A stretch of 64,000 nt of DNA. Source: Octopus vulgaris (taxonomy: Eukaryota). Position numbers and translations under genes: made by a program. Positions 3,480 through 59,258 of the stretch are shown piece after piece. Position 1 is the first letter of the stretch, and every line of letters begins with the position of its first letter. Under the pieces are notes generated by a model that saw only the letters and a list, made by a program, of their open reading frames with translations, was not told the origin of the DNA and did not search any database. The stretch spans positions 70,122,001 through 70,186,000 of the forward strand of contig OX597821.1 in the NCBI GenBank assembly GCA_951406725.2. Reading direction: 5' to 3'.

Positions 3480-4720
3480 TAAATAGAATCCCTCGTAGCG
3501 GAGCCGGCCGTCCATCTTGGGTAATTCGGGAAAAAACTTTATACAATATGTCTCGGATTGCTCTGCCCCCTCCAAAACATGGGAAGTGCCACTTTGCTTT
3601 TTCTCTCTTCCTCCTTAAAAGCTGCTTACACAGAGTCCATTCAGCCTCACCAGTCTTGCCATTCCCGTCCACCTTTTGATAAACACTCTAGAAGTTAGCG
3701 CTACCTTCTCCTATCCTCGCTTTCCTGTTCAAAAGAAATTTGAAGATAGTGAGAGCTTGGCCGGATAGGAAAGATCCTGTGCTCAAATCTTTGAGATGGG
3801 TCCACAACACAACCTCTTTTGTCACAGCCACTAAGCAGAGAAAAATCTGCTTCCCTTCTCTGCTAAAGGAAGCTGGTGCGTCGATCAACACGGAATGCTT
3901 GGTGGACAGCCGAACTCGTCTTAAACGAGACAACAGCTGCTCAACACAATCCCACAAATCACTAATGTGCGGACACTGAACGATTGCGAGCGCGACGGTT
4001 TAGTCATCTTTCAATGCATCCGGGGAAGTTAGTTGGCGCTTCCATACCTAAAGAGCTTGTCTCGGACCGGTAATTCCCCCCTGTAGCCCCCTGCTATGCC
4101 AAAGAGTTTTGGAAATTGTCCATAGTATTCAAGGTGAAATCCTCAAAAGAATCCACTCATACTGTCATTATACCCTCAACTAATCCACCCTATAGAAATC
4201 GTGAGTTATTTTCCTGCTAATGGCTTTGTTCCGTTGGTACAATGCTGTGAGCGTCTGGCAACATTCGAGTGGATAAAGACCAAAATCCTATTCTTTGTTT
4301 GACCCCGGACTACAGCTTGGTCACGGAAACGAGCTGCAGAAAGACGGGTCGTACGAAAGGCACCGACACCAATACACCCTCGTTTTCATCACCGTCCTTG
4401 ACACCTTTGCGGTGATTTAGATATTTCTGCAACTATGTCAATCTCAATGTGCGCTGGTGCATCATCAAGGACGGCATCCTGAGTACACCACAGAGTGGGT
4501 GTTGACTTCAGGTGGTTTTCCTTAAGAATCGGAAAAGCAAGCCCTCCAATCTGGTCAGAGTTTTCTTGCGAAAAGACACGACTGTTAGGCGTTAGTACAC
4601 CACCGAAGCGATGCACGCATTCGCTACTTCTGCCCGCTTTTCAGACGCAGTTTCATCTCACTATTTCTGTTTGCGATTGGCGATCCTGCTCGTGACCTCT
4701 TCCCAGTTCCTATCTGGAGA
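3480..4720 (-). mobile_element. Tx1/L1-clade LINE 3' relic (ORF2 C-terminus)
   Basis: Degenerate minus-strand coding: ..KRAEVANA.IASVVY.RL.., a Cys/His zinc-binding remnant, and ORF 3688-3957 (WDCVEQLLSR...FLCLVAVTKEVVLWT). Confidence 0.55.
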
Positions 4721-4734
4721 TCTGGTCCGAAATA

Positions 4735-5305
4735 ATAATTCTTTCTACTAAAGGCACAAGGCCTGACATTTTGAGGGAGTGGACTAGTCGATAAGAGCAA
4801 CCCCTGTGTTTCATAGGTACTTATTGTATCGACTCCGAAAGGATGAAAGGCAAAGTCGAACTCTGCAGAATGTGAACTCAGAACGTAAAGACAGACGAAA
4901 TGCCGCTAAGCCTTTGACCTAGCATGCTAACGATTCTGCCAACTCACCGACTCCTGGTCCAAAATAATAATATTGGTTTCACATTTGGCAGAAGGCTACC
5001 AATTTCGGAGGAGGTTTCAGTCGATCACGTTAACCCCAGTGCTTTACTGGTATTCATTTCATCGACCCCGTAGGCATGGAAAGCAAAGTCGGATTCGACA
5101 GAATTTGAACTCAGAACATAAAGACAGACAAGATACCACAAAACAATTTTCCCGACGCAGTAACCACTGTACCAGCTCACCGCTTTCAAAAGAATAAAAA
5201 ACTAAGTCAACCCCGGTGGCATTTGAACGCAGAAAATAAAGTCTGATGAAATGCCGCAAAGCATTTTGCCTGGTGCAGTAACGATTCTGTCAGTTCGGTA
5301 CTTTA
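4735..5305 (-). mobile_element. Cluster of three tRNA-derived SINE copies (family A)
   Basis: Repeated GAAAGGATGAAAGGCAAAGTCGA..GAA(T)TTGAACTCAGAAC..GCTAACGATTCTGCCA; the reverse complement gives a tRNA-like head with a GAGTTCAAATTC B-box; AAT-type ends. Confidence 0.8.
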
Positions 5306-5694
5306 CCATAAGGATAATAAATATCAATCACTTTTTGAGTAAATGCAATTACCAACAGAAAACGGGTATAAACGCAGGCTAGACTTTGCAAATAAAAGAG
5401 TGCTTTGGGATGTTAAGCAAGTGTGTAACTTGGTTAAGTGTGTGACTTGGTTAACATTTATATAATGTAAACAAACATACGTGCGCAGACACATTCAATC
5501 ACTCACACACGCATATGTATGCACATGCATGGATGTACATACATAGGTATGCGTATGTATGAGTATATATACATAAACACACACGCACACACACATATAT
5601 ATATAGGGAGAGGGGAATATATATATGCATAAGGCGGCGAGCTGGCAGAAACGTTAGCGCGCCGGGCGAAATGCTTTGCGGTATTTCGTCTGTG

Positions 5695-6500
5695 AGCATT
5701 CCGAATGACCGTCGAATCAAAAACAGAACTCCGCGTGCTTTGTTGGCAGCATGGACGCATTGGGCCGAAGGCGAAAAGGAAGAATCCACCAAGATACCCA
5801 GGTCCTTTACTTGGTCGGTCTTCTCCAGCAGCAGACGACCCGGTTCGAAATCAAGTTGAGTTGCAGGAGAGGAGCCAACAGGCAGATGACAGCACTTTGA
5901 CACGTTCAGACACAGGTCCCATTCGTTTGACCATCTCCAAACTTGGTGGAGGCATCGACGAAAATCTTCTATATCACTGCGAGGAGCGACCAGTTTGACA
6001 TCGTCGGCAAATAGAAGGGTGTGTTGCGTGAGGTCGTCGGGCAAGTCATTGATGAAGACTAAAAACAATATCGGCCCAAGCACTGAACCTTGAGGCATGC
6101 CACTGCTCGCACTGGAGACGTCGGACAGCGAACCATTAACTTGGACTTGGAAGGAGCGATCTGAGAGGAAGGCACCAACTCATCGTACAATACCCGGATG
6201 GAAACGATATGCTTGAAGTTTGACAAGTAATAGACGGTGATTAACCGAGTCAAAAGCTTTGGCAAAGTCCAATAAATCTATGTCAACAGCATCACCATCA
6301 TCCAGGATACGCGTCACCAATTCTTCCATTACCAGTAAGTTGGTCAAGCATGATCTCTTCGGCACGAAGCCGTGTTGGGAATCAGAGATAGAGGCGGTGT
6401 TTTGGAGGTGGAGCAACATACTTTTCTTCAGGATGGTTTCGAACATCTTGCTGATTATTGAAGTAAGGGAAACCGGTCGGTAGTTAAGCTGGTCTTCGCT
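5695..6500 (-). pseudogene. CR1/L2-like reverse transcriptase fragment
   Basis: RPVSLTSII, QHGFVPKRSCLTNLL, DFAKAFDSVNH, PQGSVLGPILFLVFINDLP, FADDVK; frameshifted across ORFs 6180-6446 and 5499-6098. Confidence 0.9.
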
Positions 6501-19442: not shown

Positions 19443-20828
19443 ATATATACATAATGTGTGTGTGTGTCTGTGTGTGTGTCTGTGTCTGCGTGTGAGTGTG
19501 TGTGATTGTTTGTGTGTATGTGTATGTGTGTGAATGGGTATTAAGAAAACAAATTGATCGAACGTGAAACCCTAGAAACGAACGAAATAATCAGGAAGAG
19601 AAACTAGAAATATCGATTTCTTCCAACAGCAACAATACTATCGTATAATCGTGTCAAACAAGAATTCTCCTGTTTCTTCTATTCTCAGTCGAAATCTAGG
19701 TGCAGAGTAAGGCTAAGAGACTACTCCGTTTGAAATTACCCCAATATATGACTGGTGTATAATTGATAGACCCCCTATAATTGGTGCTTTGTCTTGCTGG
19801 GTTCATTCATCTTTGTCCTGAAGACGAATGTGGAGAAGTCATTCCAGTAAAGTTAGGTCCCTCCATGTAGACACAAATCCATGAGAGAGCATCTACATTG
19901 TCACGTGTTCACATGGAAACGCAATGATGCTGTGACTGAGTGTAGATCATTTAGAATTCACACAATTTGACAGAAATTACAATCAATTCATCTTCGGATC
20001 GCACCAATTCTTTCTATGCCATTATGTCGAGGAAAGATCCCTGGTGATTGCTAAAATATGCAAATAGCGCTTATGGAATTATTGTAGGAAAATTCCAAGG
20101 TGGGCTCCATGCTCAGCCTTCTTTCGGTGCTTTTCACAGGATACTATCTTGCTTTCATTCTACCACATCATTGTCATCACTCAAACACAAAGACCCAAAA
20201 CAAATCTCTCACCGCATTTCGTCCGACACTCATCAGATTCTATGAATTTACAACTCCGATCTAGTCATTTGTTTTATCGAAATCCCGAAGAACGAAATGC
20301 ATCATCTTCATTGGTAGGAATTGAACTTAAAACATCAACAGTGGGAACATATACAAGCAGGAATTTTCCGATACTCTACTAATTCTGCCAATTCCCCACT
20401 TCCTCGTTCTCTACCAGATTTAAAAAAGAAGGATACATTGGCTAATGGAGCCTTAAATAAACAGTCTTTAACAAGAGCGTTGTCCATCCTCGACGTCCAC
20501 AAAGCCCAACTATAAATACAATTATCCATCAATGCTTTCCGTCATAATGTATCAGTTTGACCTGCCAGTTCCTCCAAACTCTTGGATTACTTCCTTTCTT
20601 ATATTTGGCAAGGAGTATCTTTCTCGAAATATTATATGTACCCTAACTTATGTAAGATAATACAATATCATCTCTTCGCTATTATTTATTGGCATCACCT
20701 TTTATATCTTGAATTCTCAGCTGCATTGCTGAAAGTTGTTTTAAATCGTTAAAATCATTTAATAAAGTTGATTATTGAAAAGACTGGCCTTTAAAATGTC
20801 TAAAATACAGACACAAATTAATTTAAAC

Positions 20829-23834: not shown

Positions 23835-24402
23835 TTATTCTTTTATTTGTTTCAGTCATTTGACTGCAGCCATGCTGGAGCACTGCCTTTTGTCGAACAA
23901 ATCGATCCCAGGACTTATCTTTTGTAAGTCTAGTACTTATTCTATCGGTTCTTTTGCCGAACCACTAAAATGGTTGGGAGGACAAACACAGACACACAAA
24001 CATTACCCCTCTGCAAAGGAATTTTATTTAATTCTTTCGCAGGAAGGATTAGTTCGACGAGACGTGTTCTGTCCTCACCTTCGAAACACGCTGGAGTTGA
24101 ACTAAGGACGGCTGATGAAGGGGATTTTTCCTTGTGTAGTTGTCTTGTACTCTGTTTTTTCGTTGTTAAAGGAATGGTCCGTTTTTACGTTTTCGTTTCA
24201 TTGAGTTCTACGTCTATTTGTGGTGTCCTGTACATACGTATATATATTTATATATGCATGTATATATACATGTAGGTACGCACATATATGTTTGTATGTA
24301 TGCATATATTTTATTTATTACACTATTGTATGACTGAGCGCCTTCGCGTCGATTCGATTCGATTCGTTTGGTTTCGTTTCGTTTCTTCTTCTTCTCTAGG
24401 CT

Positions 24403-24859: not shown

Positions 24860-24905
24860 AACACAACGTTTCGGCTGATATACTTTCCACCCTTCATCAG
24901 GTGTC
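24860..24905 (-). ncRNA. Minimal type I hammerhead motif
   Basis: gacac-CTGATGA-a-gggtg...cagcc-GAAAC-GTT-gtgtt. Confidence 0.7.
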
Positions 24906-39096: not shown

Positions 39097-39131
39097 ATTT
39101 AACGTTTCGAGCGGAGCTCTTCATCAGAAAC
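39097..39131 (-). ncRNA. Minimal type I hammerhead motif
   Basis: gttt-CTGATGA-a-gagc-tcc-gctc-GAAAC-GTT-aaat; sister copy 60534-60568 (+) has a decayed core. Confidence 0.8.
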
Positions 39132-41705: not shown

Positions 41706-41834
41706 GAAATGTAACTGAATGCTTGCACACATGTTGTTTGAGTGACAGACTGACAGACAGAGGGAAAAAGCAGTCACAAACAAGCAGTGAAAGACAGGCA
41801 GGCAGAGAAAGAAAGAGAACGGGAGAAGCAATAA

Positions 41835-42832
41835 AATGCCTGATATGAAACAAGTCTGGCTAGCCACCCTTGCAAGCTACGCAGACGATACGAAAGTCTC
41901 GCAGAAAATACAGAATCCCTGGGTTGTTGCACACCTGCAGCAGGAGTTGAACTCAATTTATAGATGGGCTGAGGATAATGATATGCAATTTAATGCTGGA
42001 AAATCCCAATCCCTGCGCTACGAGCGCCCAACACTGAAAGTAAAACTTACGGGGTACACTGGCCCACAGGGAATTACAATCCCAGAGCTTAAATCAGTGC
42101 GGGACTTGGCTATCGACATGAATGATGATACCCCTTTCCAAGTGCACATTACCAAGATGGCGACAAAGTGCCGACGGCTGGATGGATGGATCCTGAGAAC
42201 GTTCAGAACCAGAGAGAAGGAAACCTTGATGGTCCTCTGGAGGATATTCAACCTCAACCGCCTGGACTACTACTCCTAGCTATGGTCACCCCACAGTATA
42301 AAATTAACAGCGGATCTTGAAGCAATCCAGCGAAGCTTCACAAAGAAAATCGTCTCAGTGCAACAGCTCAGCTACTGGGATATGCTGAAACAGCTAAGAC
42401 TTTACTCCCTGGAACGAAGGCAGGAGAGATATGCAGTTATATATATCTGGTGGTTCCTAGAAGTGATTGTGCCAAATTTTGGCATTGATATCTACACAAA
42501 TGCCAGAACGGATCCCAGCAATGCCATCGCGCTTCACGACCAGTTACTGCAACAACGTGGGTTTCAGGGGCCTGCAGCTTTTTAATATTTTTTCCCTAAG
42601 AGCCTGTGGGCCCGCCACAAGGTGGACGTAGGTGCTTTCAAGTTAAAATTGGATCTCTTCCTCTCAAGAGTCCCAGATTAACCTACCCTGCGGTAGGAGA
42701 TGCAATTGAGGGTAGCGACATCACATCAAACTCCCTTATTCACCAAATGCTACATATCAGAGGAGGAGGCTCTCAACAACAGAGTAGCAAAATGGCGGTG
42801 CCCCAGCATGGTCACAGCTCGGATGTGAAACT

Positions 42833-45384: not shown

Positions 45385-46570
45385 GTGATATTGTCAATTT
45401 TTACCCGTCAATATCTAAGCCTTTGCAAGGAAATACGATGATTCTACCAGTGTCAAAAAGAGTGAGGATTCTCTTTTCGATGTACCGATGGGGGCTTATG
45501 ATGGGGCGGAGTTGTGTATGTTTATAGGAACATATTTTGCATAACCTGCATCTAAAATTCCCTTTTAAAGATGCAGGATTATACAGAGATGTCGGTCACT
45601 CTAATTTAAACGGCCACAATTCAGATTAATTTAGGAAGAATCTGATTACTTTCTTCCAAAGAACGGGCTTACGGATTACGATAGAAAGTAAGCTTAATAA
45701 CGTTGACTTTTTAGATATCAACTCAGATTTGCAATCAGATAAATTTAAACCTTACCGTAAGCCCAATGAAAAGCTATGTTGTTTTAGCAAAGAATCTAAT
45801 TCTTAAGAACCTAGTTAGTAATGTGGGAAGGCGAATATCATCAATTTCTTCAGATGAGACAGCATTTCAAAACGTCGTGCCATATTATAATAATGCATTA
45901 AGGAAAAGTGGATTCTCGGAAAAGATCCAGTATAGTCAAGCTAATTCTAACAATAATAGACAACGTAGAACTAGACCTAGGAAAGTTTTGTGGGTTAACC
46001 TCGCATTTAATATTGCCGTGAAAACTAATATAGGTGGGGAATACATGAAACTAGTTTCTAATTTTCAGTCTAGCCACAAGTTCTACAGAATTGTTAATAG
46101 AACACTGAAGATTTGCTATTCTTGTTGCAAAAACTTCACCACTTTCATTAATCGGCATAACACGAAAATTTTTACAAACACCCACAATACTGAATCTAAT
46201 CTGAGGAACTGCATCTTCAAAGTTAAGACTTGTCTGTTGGAACGTAGATGTCTTGAAATAGGAATTGTTTACAGAGCTAAAGTCCAGAGGAATACAAAAC
46301 ATATACAGGGGCTTCGGAAAATTCATTCAGGACTCGATTCTATGCCCACCGAAATTCTTTCCGATACCCCGAGAATAGGACAGCAACTAGACTTGCAAAG
46401 CATGTCTGGCAAGTGAAAGAGAATGACACCCGTCCTTTCAGTGTAACCGGGGAAATTCTAGAAAAAGCATCATCATACGAACATGGAGTTTCAAAAAGAG
46501 CCATGAAATGTAATCTTTGCCTCTCAGAACCAGAGACGCGAGCTCTTAAATTCCTGCAGGCACGCCGCGA
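45385..46570 (+). pseudogene. Penelope-like element RT plus GIY-YIG endonuclease relic
   Basis: DIVNFYPSI, FDVPMGAYDGAELC, GLYRD, VDFLDI, ORF 45766-46416 (RRISSISSDE..F..YNNAL.KSGF, RKVLW.N...VKTNIG, Cys-rich linker, IVYRAKV), CNLCLSE, SCRH. Confidence 0.85.
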
Positions 46571-47011: not shown

Positions 47012-48307
47012 TGTGTACGTATATATGTATATATGTGTGTGGGCATATATTTGATGCGTGTCAATATGTGTCTGTATTTGAATGTATGTTTGTATTTATG
47101 TAGATCTGCATGTAATTTTATCTGTGCCTTTCGCACGCTGAACGAAGTTTCTAACTTTCGTTAGGTTCTTATACGAACGCCAATCATTTCACTCTATCTC
47201 TATTTGTTTTTTCTCTAATTTTCTGTTTCTTTTCTTATATTTTCTTCTTTTCCCTTTTTCTCCCCCCACCTCAAAACTTGTTATTCTATTATTTTTTTCC
47301 TTTTCTTTCTTTCGCCTGTAAGAACTAAGTTGTATAAGCATACACCAGGAGGTTTTGCGTGCGTATATATACATATATATGCATTTGTATATATATTTGT
47401 TTTGCCTATATATATATCTGTATACGTATGGAGCCATGTACCTACGTCTGTATGTTTGGTGTGTATATATACGTATATTATAGATTGTATTATAAATATG
47501 TATGTATTCCTAAATGTATGTGTATTTTAGCGTGAAAAAAAAACCCGGATATTTCTTTTAATTTATTAAGTTATAATTATTTTAAGAACTAGTTATTTAC
47601 CCTGAGTATTTTTGGTTTGAGGTTTTCTTCGATTTTTATAATATGATTTTTTACGCAATTTGTTATTTCATGCCACCGGTTATTGAAAGGGCCGTTAGTT
47701 GAAAGGACCAATGAAACAAGACTATTTTCAAATGGGTATCTATCAAAGTAATTGTATTTCTGCATATAACTTCAACTTGCTCCAATCTAAACAAAACTGT
47801 CTGTACTCTTTCGCCACAACTTTCTCTCCCTTTTTCTTCTGTTGCCCTGATCGCTTAGCCAGCGGGTGGCGTCACCTGAAGGCTAAAACAAGGCGAAGCG
47901 CATTGTGACCAGCGATGTGTAGCAACATCTGATAGCCTGTTCGGTCACGGTGATCACGGTGATTATATATTTATATATATATATATATATAAAGTAATAG
48001 TAATAATAATACTTGGGTGGAATTTTATAGATTCCATCCAAGGGGTTGTTTCGGTACACTCACTGCAGTAAAATAACCCTAGAATACTCATCTCGTCCAT
48101 ACAGGCAACAGACAACGTTTGCCGGAGTAACAATACATAACTGTCGTAGAGTAATGCGGTAGGCGATACAGGCACACGTTCGCTGCTGCGGTGATCCCGT
48201 CTATCTTCTCACCTTACCATCCGCTACGCACAATTGTTTCCTTATCGCTAACATCCGTAATGAGTGGTAACCATTCCGATATCTTTGACACCAACATATT
48301 CATATAT

Positions 48308-50100
48308 AGTCCAACTAAGATCACTGAGATGCTGAATGACCAGTTCAAAAGTGTCTTTACCATCCCGTTGGAACACAGACAAGTGAACGAACCAGTGGAC
48401 TTCTTTGCCACCTCACCTATAACCAGCGAGGCGGTTACAATAGAATGCATTGACATTAGCGAAGATGTCCTACTAGCCATAGATGAAGTGGACACAAACT
48501 CAACTGCTGGTCCAGATGGTTTCCCTGCAATCCTCCTCAAAGCGTGTAAGCATGCCCTGGCAAAACCCCTCAAGATTCTCTTCCAAAGCTTTCTTACAAA
48601 TGGCAAGCTGCCAAGCAAGCTGAAGGAGGGAATAATATGCCCAATACATAAAGGGGGAAGTAGAGCAGATGCCAAAAACTATAGGCCTATCTCTCTGACT
48701 TCACACATCAACAAAGTCATGTAACAGACAATCAGAAAGAAACTAATCGCATTCTTTGAGGAAAATATTTTGATGGTTTTCGACCAGATAGGATCTGCCT
48801 GACCCAGCTCTTACAACATTATGACTGGGTGTTGAGGCAGTTACTCAAAAAATCAAATGTGGACGTAATCTACCTTGATTTTGCAAAAGCTTTTGACAAG
48901 GTGGATCATGGTATGATATGCCACAAACTGCATGACCTCAGCACCTCTATGAACACACAAATAGTGAGTGGTGTTCCACAGGGCACTGTCTTGGGACCAC
49001 TGCTCTTTATAGTGGCCCTCTCAGATATGCCCTCAAATGCCCAGATAGCCACTCTGGCAAGCTATGCAGACGATACGAAAGTCTCGCAGAAAATACAGAA
49101 CCCCAGCGATGTTGCACACCTGCAGCAGGAGTTGGACTCAATCTACAGATGGGCTGAGGATAATAATATACAGATTAATGCTGAAAATTTCCAGGCCCTG
49201 CGCTACCAGCATCCAAAACTGAATATTAAACTTACAGGATACACCGGTCCACAAGGAATTTCAATCCCAGAGCCCAACACTGAAAGTAAAACTTACGGGG
49301 TACACTGGCCCACAGGGAATTAGAATCCCAGAGCTTAAATCAGTGCGGGACTTGGCTATCGACATGAGTGATGATACCTCTTTCCAAGTGCACATTACCA
49401 GGATGGCGACAAAGTGCCGACGACTGGCTGGATGGATCCTAAGAACATTCAGAACCAAAGATAAGGAAACCATGATGGTCCTCTGGCGGTCATTCGTCCT
49501 CAGCCGCCTAGATTACTGCTCACAGCTATGGTCACCCACCAGTGTGAGATTAACAGTGGACCTTGAAGCAATCCAGAAAAGATTCACAAAGAAGATCGTC
49601 CCATTGCAACAGCTCAGCTACTGGGAAAGGTTGAAACAGCTAAGACTCTACTCCTTGGAGAGAAGACGGGAGAGGTATGCAGTAATATATGTCTGGAAGA
49701 TCCTGGAAGGAATTGTGACAAATTTTGGCATTGAAAGCTACACCAATGCCAGAACGGGACGACACTGCATAATGCCAAAGATCCCAGCAATGCCATCACG
49801 CTTCAGGAGCAGCTTCTGCAACAGCCTGGGTTTCAAGGGCCCACAGCTTTTTAATATTCTCCCAAAGAGTCTGAGAAACTTGCACAAAGTAGATGTAGCA
49901 GTTTTTAAATCAAAGCTGGACATCTTCCCGTCGAGAGTTCCAGATAAACCTACCTCACGGCAAGAGGTGCAAATGAGAGTAGCTATATCAAACTCCATTC
50001 TTCACCAAGTGCCACATATTAGAGGAGGTTCTTCGCAATAACAGTGTAGCACAAGGCGGCGGTGCATCAGCATGGCCGCGGCTCTGAGCTGAAACAAACA
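48308..50100 (+). mobile_element. CR1/L2-like LINE, 5'-truncated, with internal deletion and duplication
   Basis: AGPDGFPA, NYRPISLTS, YLDFAKAFDKVDH, SGVPQGTVLGPLLF, YADDTK, SRLDYCSQLWSP, LYSLERRRERY; A-rich tail. Confidence 0.92.
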
Positions 50101-57805: not shown

Positions 57806-58134
57806 CTCATACCAATACCTTTCAATTACCCATGTTCTTTTTGTTTTTTAACGTTTTTTTATCGTTTTAGTCGTTTCACTCATCAGACTGCGCCCATGCT
57901 GCAGCACCCTCTTGGAGAATTTAGTCGAACAAGTAGCCCCGAATACTTACTTCTAAATCTGTACTTTTTGTATCGGTCTTCTACCAAAACCCTAAGTTAC
58001 AGGGACGTAACGAAACCAACTCCGCTAGTAACGCAATCGTGAGGAAACAAAGTGTGTGTGTGTGTGCACTCGCGTGTGCATGTGTGTGTATCTCTGTGTA
58101 CGCATGTACGTGTATACACACACAAACACACACG

Positions 58135-58189
<55 letters not shown>

Positions 58190-58353
58190 GTTCTTGTTTG
58201 TCTCCTGTCCAAGCTTGATTTACGCGTTCGTCACCACAACCTCGTTTAGGTTTAGCAGCCCTTACTGTTTCTTTTCACTGTCCTATTTGTGTTACCAATT
58301 TTGACCCTCCACAAATTCCTCAATTTTAAAAAAAATTTTACTTTGCGGGAGAA

Positions 58354-58433
58354 ACTGTTTTATCGAAAGCGTATATTGTTGTAAAATGCTCGAAATACGA
58401 GACTAGAAAAACAGTCAACAACTGATGAAGGGT
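58354..58433 (+). ncRNA. Non-circularly permuted (pseudoknotted) hammerhead candidate, family J2
   Basis: actgtttt-atcgaaag-CGTAT-A-ttgttg-taaaat-gctc-GAAATACG-agactaga-aaaacagt-caacaa-CTGATGA-a-gggt. Confidence 0.78.
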
Positions 58434-58554
58434 CGTTCTTTATGTTGTTTGTCTTGTTTTCCATTTGTGTCTTTCGTTGTTCGAAAGACTAGTTCATATT
58501 CTATGTACTCGTACTTCGTATTTTTTGTTGTACACGTTTCGTGACGTCCTGTGT

Positions 58555-58635
<81 letters not shown>

Positions 58636-58729
58636 CGTGTAGATCTACGTATGTACATATACGTATGTATATATGCATATATATATTACTTATTATATGA
58701 CCGAACGCTACGGATCCTCTTCCAAATAA

Positions 58730-58773
<44 letters not shown>

Positions 58774-58829: not shown

Positions 58830-59258
58830 AACAGGTACTTGGAGAGAAGAACGGAACGAAACGAACGAATCGAATCGAATCGACGCGAGGGCGCTGTCAT
58901 ACAATAGTGTAATAAATAAAATATATGCATACATACATACATATATGTACGTACCTACATCTACATGTATGTATACATGCATATATAAATATATATACGT
59001 GAGTACAGGACACCACAAATAGACGTAGAACTCAACGATTAAAGAAAACGGAAAAACAAGCATGGAACAAACCATTTTTTTACAATAGAAAAAGAGAGTA
59101 CAAGACAAACTACACAAGGAAAAATCCCATTCATCAGCTGTCCCTAGTTCAACTCTAGCGTGTTTCGAACACGACTCGTCAAACTAGCCCTTCCTGCGAG
59201 AGAATTAAATAAAATTACTTCGCCGAGGGGTAAAAACATACGTACGCCTTTCTGTTTG

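Follow-up and report, generated by a model that had tools for sequence, protein, structure and literature searches.

Hammerhead ribozymes use G12 as the base and the 2'-OH of G8 as the acid, as set out in passages of Zhan et al. 2024 (PMC11300833). In Eckert et al. 2023 (PMC10085705), the motif is divided into blocks S, G and C, and the types SGC and CSG were validated with constructs that cleave co-transcriptionally. This division assumes that CUGAnGA is contiguous with its adjacent paired strands, leaving six possible orders, and in both validated types a helix joins the outer ends of stems I and II. The examples originate from metatranscriptome and metagenome searches, with type CSG listed as soil DNA, and the supplement text mentions neither Octopus, Metazoa nor Eukaryota. 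In animals, non-LTR retrozymes form non-coding tandem monomers with one hammerhead each and are proposed to be non-autonomous derivatives of Penelope-like elements that spread by rolling circle; the main-text passages of the preprint describing them (bioRxiv 10.64898/2026.07.22.740005) contain nothing on permuted ribozymes, Octopus or cephalopods.

Here we compare these systems with J2, a candidate ribozyme in a 64-kb stretch of the Octopus vulgaris genome (contig OX597821.1, positions 70,122,001 to 70,186,000; hereafter the window), and with a second site of the same layout, J1. We put the probability that J2 is a real, selected and probably active split-core hammerhead at roughly three in four, as a combined structural and functional reading.

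The proposed J2 fold and its known relatives

The proposed ribozyme would comprise four segments in the order D-S-G-C (Table 1): D provides the 10.x strand, S holds stem III, the cut site and stem I, G carries the 11.x strand, GAAA and stem III, and C contains stem I and CUGAUGA. The pair G10.1-C11.1 would connect the first segment with the third, with the chain entering at G10.1 and leaving after A9. A clamp, built from the strand after 10.x and the strand before 2.x, would tie together the outer ends of stems I and II, and the resulting topology would be that of type CSG opened between A9 and G10.1.

Table 1. Coordinates of J1, J2 and the parts of the J2 ribozyme within the window.
Feature	Position	Strand	Basis or remark
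Intact J1 split-core hammerhead; D GAAGG 24043-47 with CCTTC 24078-82; predicted cut 24068/24069	24043..24118	+	
J1-type copy with a 12-13 nt deletion removing stem I strand and linker	59131..59193	-	predicted dead
J2 non-coding element, 5'-truncated copy in (TA)n	~58186..58730 (boundaries approximate)	+	blastn against family copies
Block D, 5' strand of stem II; G58349 = G10.1	58349..58353	+	family alignment, covariation
Clamp K, 5' strand (stem I-II interaction helix)	58355..58361	+	pairing with 58408..58414
Stem III, 16.x strand CGTAT; U16.1 = 58374	58370..58374	+	letters, covariation
H17 = A58375 (triplet AUA); predicted cut	58375/58376	+	analogy to hammerhead core; genomic 5' end pile-up directly downstream
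Stem I, 1.x strand TTGTTG	58376..58381	+	letters, covariation
Linker after the stem I 1.x strand	58382..58386	+	
Stem II, 11.x strand TGCTC; C11.1 = 58391; partner 58349-53	58387..58391	+	covariation
G12 A13 A14 A15.1 (GAAA 58392-95) and stem III 15.x strand	58392..58399	+	invariant in 21/21 rows
Clamp K, 3' strand	58408..58414	+	pairing with 58355..58361
Stem I, 2.x strand CAACAA	58416..58421	+	covariation
Core C3-U4-G5-A6-U7-G8-A9 (CTGATGA)	58422..58428	+	chain would exit after A9 in the best model
Stem II strand GGGT of the sequence-only reading	58430..58433	+	not conserved as partner across families

As far as the published description goes, type SGC shares with J2 the S-G-C order, a short S-G linker and the outer-end helix. 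However, its stem II strand lies directly 3' of CUGAnGA, while in J2 the two are about 75 nt apart and the 10.x strand comes first. The SGC order itself had been regarded as unconventional in a sequence-only reading of this DNA, which also proposed a selected ribozyme in a mobile element; selection and the mobile element were borne out, but the order was already published as type SGC (PMC10085705). In type CSG, as described there, CUGAnGA comes first, followed by the stem II strand, S and G, an order that J2 does not follow. The pseudoknotted (PK) hammerhead takes most of helix II from an upstream strand, as does J2, yet in the passages of its description A9, G10.1 and C11.1 belong to one stem-loop in canonical order, whereas G10.1 of J2 comes from upstream (PMC11300833). 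Its loop II moreover pairs with the loop of helix IV, a pairing that J2 did not display.

The circularly permuted types I-III have the orders CGS, GSC or SCG, and J2, with S-G-C, lies outside them. The D-S-G-C order also falls outside the six permutations considered in 2023. One-base insertions occur naturally at the A9-G10.1 step, and 8-letter cores seen in the covered Naiad consensus sequences are consistent with them. Minizymes and miniribozymes, among them engineered versions with a single G10.1-C11.1 pair, indicate that this step is tolerant (PMC544870). In the literature found, with most subscription papers outside the search, neither the split-core topology nor permuted hammerheads in Naiads or octopus are described; PMC10162972 likewise offers nothing on the subject.

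To identify the fold, we used a descriptor of the core and stems I and III in S-G-C order, which is blind to stem II and clamp. Within the window it matched J1 (24112) and J2 (58422) and nothing else, and it yielded no match in 1.77 Mb of reversed or complemented loci and, among the matches listed, none in 120 viral loci carrying motif words only. The scrambled layout shared by J1 and J2 therefore exceeds chance. Applied to genomic loci of element families, the descriptor gave 106 matches (91 unique, 15 clusters), the unique matches being dominated by three families that were themselves search targets. A CSG-type descriptor had no match in the window or the collected genomic loci.

Other searches were less specific or did not register the fold. 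Among 150 of 298 listed rows, the Rfam scan of the whole window gave only sub-threshold matches, mostly to microsatellites, and a local Rfam scan at J2 gave no hammerhead match. Nested, non-pseudoknot folding of the J2 region was unremarkable (z -0.64), as expected for a pseudoknot. In the genome (2.8 Gb, 227 contigs), a broad pattern search returned 12,249 matches against 9 in the control, an overcount for the split-core form, as about 55 of the first 100 matches listed belonged, counted by eye, to a canonical-order hammerhead family. Another genome pattern search was only weakly enriched (12,227 versus 8,664 in the control). Since Rfam and the usual descriptors miss the split-core fold, ribozyme censuses are likely incomplete.

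The strand that forms stem II

For the 11.x strand, two partners were compared: the upstream block D and the strand following CUGAUGA-A, which the sequence-only reading had drawn as GCTC/GGGT. The upstream partner made at least four of five Watson-Crick pairs in 86 of the 91 unique matches (all five in 67), and its first base was G in 83 of these 86. The post-core partner reached at least three of four Watson-Crick pairs in only 6 of 91 matches and was complete in 53 of 91 with G-U allowed. When the 11.x strand came from the family itself, a perfect upstream partner was present in 11 of 15 clusters; with the strand of another family this was so in 5 of 190 trials. In 14 of the 15 cluster representatives the first base of D gives G-C with position 11.1, and in four of them the post-core position opposite 11.1 is not G. 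The paired letters change from family to family: GAAGG/CCTTC in J1, GAGCA/TGCTC in the J2 family and, found by pattern search, GAACG/CGTTC, GACAC/GTGTC, GGCTG/CAGCC, GGCCG/CGGCC, GCGCT/AGCGC and GCACC/GGTGC in further families.

Covariation was tested in an automatic alignment of 21 hand-picked rows, with both stem II helices compared on the same rows; shared ancestry of the families inflates the shuffle tests. The upstream helix (58349-53/58387-91) was 86.5% paired with a covariation of 0.685 (0 of 500 shuffles), against 69% and 0.207 (378 of 500 shuffles) for GCTC/GGGT, which gave way to the upstream helix on these figures. All four helices together were 84.9% paired with a covariation of 0.640, and 16 of 18 pairs had two-sided changes; sliding the partners out of register gave at most 41.5%. 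The clamp was the weakest helix, with 66% paired in the automatic alignment. Copies thus kept stems I and III, the clamp and the upstream stem II, as the earlier proposal demanded of homologous copies, but not its post-core stem II.

The hammerhead core C3-A9, G12-A13-A14, U16.1-A15.1 and H17 is present. Its catalytic positions are invariant in 21/21 rows, with U16.1-A15.1 being U-A in every row, and the invariance claimed for GAAA and CTGATGA held in these rows; H17 was never G in the descriptor matches, by construction. Stems I, II and III with R10.1-Y11.1 are all formed only if the upstream strand is used, with one mismatch in the window copy. Stem II takes its 10.x strand from the 5' end of the ribozyme, and the core is split between A9 and G10.1, with G10.1 located 73 nt before C3 and about 75 nt upstream of A9.

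J2 could alternatively be an ordinary type-SGC hammerhead, in which the strand after CUGAUGA-A forms stem II and the clamp extends stem III. This is a validated fold, four pairs (two of them G-U) can be drawn in both J1 and J2, those 53 matches complete the helix with G-U, and the G following the core in J1, J2 and the octopus family N could pair with C11.1. Nevertheless, we regard it as very unlikely, since the post-core helix shows no covariation, fails in families J7 and J9 as well as in the Naiads of Acropora, part 12 and part 19 (C or A after the core), and leaves the G-led upstream complement unexplained.

J1, J2 and N allow either helix to be drawn. D might instead act as a conserved inhibitor, sequestering the 11.x strand as the RNA is transcribed, with a short post-core G10.1-C11.1 helix as the active form. 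Such a two-state switch would resemble the engineered miniribozymes with a single G10.1-C11.1 pair (PMC544870), and more than half of the copies run through the cut. We give it very little chance, as four of 15 representatives have no post-core G while D provides the G-C pair in 14 of 15. In addition, the CSG Naiads, as printed in the supplement passages, have a D strand and then a clamp strand right after A9, where it is plainly stem II.

The same pairings might also form between two tandem copies as a domain-swapped dimer. Tandem copies exist, the short loops joining clamp and stem III on both strands may be strained, and Penelope-like hammerheads reportedly cleave as dimers. All split-core stems, however, have 4-10 bp, and minimal dimeric hammerhead motifs differ from this. 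SGC and CSG constructs with an equivalent helix cleave co-transcriptionally according to their description (PMC10085705), and we consider the dimer improbable. Two further candidate structures were rejected. Pairing of the 5' flank with the post-core strand would give a fifth helix, which seemed possible in J1 and J2 but competes with stem II and looked inconsistent across families; a kink-turn in the loop between clamp and stem III suited only J1.

All J2 letters quoted in the sequence-only reading were found in place, including the clamp strands ACTGTTTT (58354-61) and AAAACAGT (58408-15). Its clamp stands as a helix of 7 bp; the eighth pair, A58354-U58415, arises in the window copy from a T where the family majority has C. 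The family clamp accordingly has 7 bp and a 1-nt spacer ahead of stem I, contrary to the claim that it abuts strand C. Going by the text of Eckert et al., it is probably their stem I-II interaction helix.

Block D of the window copy reads GAGAA instead of the family GAGCA, and A58352 faces G58388 as a mismatch. The duplex energy of stem II is -1.7 kcal/mol in this copy, compared with -1.5 for the rival post-core helix; the corresponding values are -5.4 versus -1.5 for the J2 family copy and -4.6 versus 0.0 kcal/mol for J1. The window copy may be impaired by this mismatch. Among unbiased copies retrieved with a strict pattern (n = 23), the pair was intact in 10 and carried substitutions in 13, as expected of neutrally ageing insertions.

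Elements and 5' ends at the predicted cut

J1 and J2 are non-coding monomers of about 770-790 nt that occur as partial tandems with one hammerhead each, as in the animal retrozymes of the preprint passages; in one locus (L039), successive ribozymes are 785 nt apart. Animal retrozyme monomers measure 170-400 nt, and the J monomers, at about 780 nt, are longer. Their 3' end is sharp and runs into (TA)n, their 5' ends vary, and partial tandems and inversions are found. A first look at the genome gave 2011 J2 and 1601 J1 candidates, of which 40 each were scored. The monomers align weakly but collinearly in several segments (E 1e-6 to 0.02), which makes J1 and J2 homologous, diverged relatives and overturns the earlier view of J2 as an independent case. 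No open reading frame was found in 60 J1/J2 loci, a protein database search for a coding partner was empty, and comparison with Naiad loci gave nothing beyond microsatellites and nested insertions.

In the window, J2 (58186-58730, plus strand) and a J1-type copy (~58830-59230, minus strand) lie tail to tail, about 100 nt apart; in the latter, a deletion between short direct repeats took away the stem I strand. In another locus (L012), J1 and J2 are joined directly. At J2 monomer junctions (L004, L010, L030), the 3' boundary, which is fixed, looks like a splice donor, and a long run of pyrimidines closed by AG comes after it in the next monomer, an arrangement like that of the 5' intron in Penelope-like elements.

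To map where homology starts, copies were chosen in genome order by an anchor downstream of the cut (151 nt for J1, about 123 nt for J2), and the first 90 of 956 J1 matches and the first 80 of 450 J2 matches were used. For J1, 19 of 65 junctions in a 335-nt interval fell at 0 to +19 from the predicted cut, against 3.2 expected from the background hazard (P 1e-9); for J2 there were 11 of 60, against 3.4 expected on the same basis (P 8e-4). This interval was picked after a hint from an earlier search result. Positions -20 to -1 held four (J1) and three (J2) junctions, and the best non-overlapping intervals elsewhere held six and eight. Of the 11 J2 junctions, one (L411) is due to an internal deletion, and a few stem from inversions; given these cases and the hinted interval, the J2 footprint alone is moderate evidence, while that of J1 is strong. 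Covariation thus bears out stems I and III as first proposed, and the pile-up supports the proposed cut at 58375/58376.

The pile-up of 5' ends just 3' of the predicted cut suggests cleavage in vivo, and the simplest reading of the excess is a reverse transcriptase running off RNA cut there. Copies extending past the cut (51 of 90 for J1, 45 of 80 for J2) call for templates that were circular, multimeric or uncut.

A structure that is conserved but not catalytic, such as a protein-binding or packaging signal, could produce 5' ends if reverse transcriptase stalled in the pseudoknot. The spread of the junctions over +0 to +23, not on one base, and the absence of cut ends from RNA reads would suit this idea. 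In contrast, the excess ends at the cut, and none is seen at the fold's 3' edge, which a stalling enzyme would reach first; invariant catalytic positions in 21/21 rows with a retained U16.1-A15.1 pair are at odds with a purely structural role. We judge it highly improbable and retain the split-core hammerhead.

Three raw RNA runs (about 6% of each) had no pile-up of read starts or ends at the cut, which such libraries rarely show; we take this as neutral on cleavage. J2-like reads occurred in both mate directions, mostly 90-95% alike and partly aligned, J1 was nearly uncovered, and no back-joint was seen on a reference lacking the full monomer junction. An opposite-strand joint inside J2 (L012:1507/1560) appeared in all three runs with 22-48 reads and many starts, and is probably an expressed inverted copy in the sequenced organism.

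Naiads and a proposed life cycle

Naiad Penelope-like elements target (TA)n, with partial tandem and inverted insertions, and were reported without canonical hammerheads, some being labelled 'HHR_core' or 'HHR_half_core' that fit no descriptor (passages of Craig et al. 2021, PMC8557442). They share the (TA)n target, partial tandems and inversions with J1 and J2, which differ in having no open reading frame. By eye, the D-S-G-C layout can be recognised in 10 of the 54 published consensus sequences: Bfor (stem I of only 2 bp), one in the Clytia stretch, three of Acropora (Aacu with two mismatches), two in supplement part 12, one in part 19, Obim and the next one, taken as Ovul. Several of these (Acropora, part 12, part 19) have C or A after the core in the printed consensus, unable to pair with C11.1. 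Eight other, non-cephalopod consensus sequences (Nbra-1, -2 and -3, Hcon, Hpol, two in part 13 and one in part 16) appear by eye to be of type CSG, in which CUGAnGA is followed immediately by the D strand and clamp. The remaining 36 lie outside the supplement passages covered or have no visible hammerhead. Several 'HHR_core' and 'HHR_half_core' Naiads may thus be readable, by eye, as complete permuted ribozymes. Bivalve and hemichordate Naiad stretches (parts 21, 25 and 26) hold a different conserved 3' motif that is not a hammerhead. Two protein motifs had no match among the listed lines of the supplement text (PMC8557442).

In the octopus genome, a family that we call N (708 pattern matches versus 3 in the control, a minority being J variants) matches the published Naiad_Obim/Ovul 3' end. 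It lies sense-downstream of reverse-transcriptase (RT) fragments, for example one of 292 aa about 850 nt upstream in L190; RVT_1 matches to such fragments gave E-values of 2e-4 and 1e-5, below the Pfam cut-off. With a Naiad-like 3' end and RT upstream in sense, N qualifies as a Naiad. All these copies are decayed and showed no N-terminal nuclease, and the longest open frame among 83 Naiad-like RT matches is 292 aa. J1 and J2 do not group with Naiads: they showed neither a GIY-YIG, CxC or RT reading frame nor homology to Naiad ends, and homology to family N was undetected. A Neptune-type reading frame in L203 was rejected as their partner, as it is a separate insertion; its end (4380-5501, minus strand) includes GIY-YIG, and the visible 3' region has no CUGANGA.

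A remnant of a Penelope-like element with a C-terminal nuclease occupies 45430-46570 (plus strand) of the window. The related family has 6662 candidates, many of them near-identical copies with frames of up to 727-774 aa. This 727-aa family looks recently active and is a candidate mobiliser of the very young J1.

In our best model, the split-core fold would be the processing ribozyme of both Naiads and non-coding, retrozyme-like elements such as J1 and J2. The model builds on the observed covarying pairings, the tandem and (TA)n anatomy, the link between family N and RT remnants, and the excess of 5' ends. Once the last block, CUGAUGA, is transcribed, cleavage after H17 (A58375) would leave a 2',3'-cyclic phosphate and a 5'-OH and free monomers from tandem or read-through transcripts. 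Re-ligation to circles might be aided by the three helices that hold the products. A Penelope-like enzyme would then prime reverse transcription at a (TA)n nick and start from a fixed point about 350 nt 3' of the cut, running off at the cut on linear RNA and reading through on circular or uncut RNA to give partial tandems. The layout itself may have originated by tandem duplication of an element followed by loss of the outer halves, which would shift the clamp-stem I-CUGAnGA part of CSG from front to back and yield D-S-G-C.

We think it likely that this is a seventh natural hammerhead topology, with a core discontinuous at A9/G10.1, and an old and widespread Naiad processing ribozyme from ctenophores to cephalopods, related by circular permutation to the type CSG kept by nematode and other Naiads. 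Non-circular permutations would then be common in animal genomes, on the order of 10^4 copies in this one, the apparent lack of a Naiad hammerhead would be largely a descriptor artefact, and insertion ends would record cleavage in vivo. A split core breaks the assumption, as worded in Eckert et al., the one paper on non-circular hammerhead permutations among the literature found, that CUGAnGA is inseparable from its stem II strand (PMC10085705), and would place non-circular permuted hammerheads in animal chromosomes at high copy number. It also offers an answer to the apparent absence of hammerheads from Naiads compared with other Penelope-like elements, and tandem duplication would be a simple route between two permutations within one retroelement clade. 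For ribozyme engineering, a core tolerating free 5' and 3' ends at A9/G10.1 would provide a new attachment point.

The window also contains canonical-order motifs. At 24894-24900 (minus strand) lies a member of a very abundant hammerhead family (CUGAUGA-A, stem II, GAAA), and CUGAUGA followed by GAAA marks candidate hammerheads at 57880-57886, 39121-39127 and 20230-20236 (all minus strand). The repeat search of the window was dominated by microsatellites, and ordinary LINE-type RT fragments are located at 5499-6179 (minus strand), 48155-50041 (plus strand) and 41791-42279 (plus strand).
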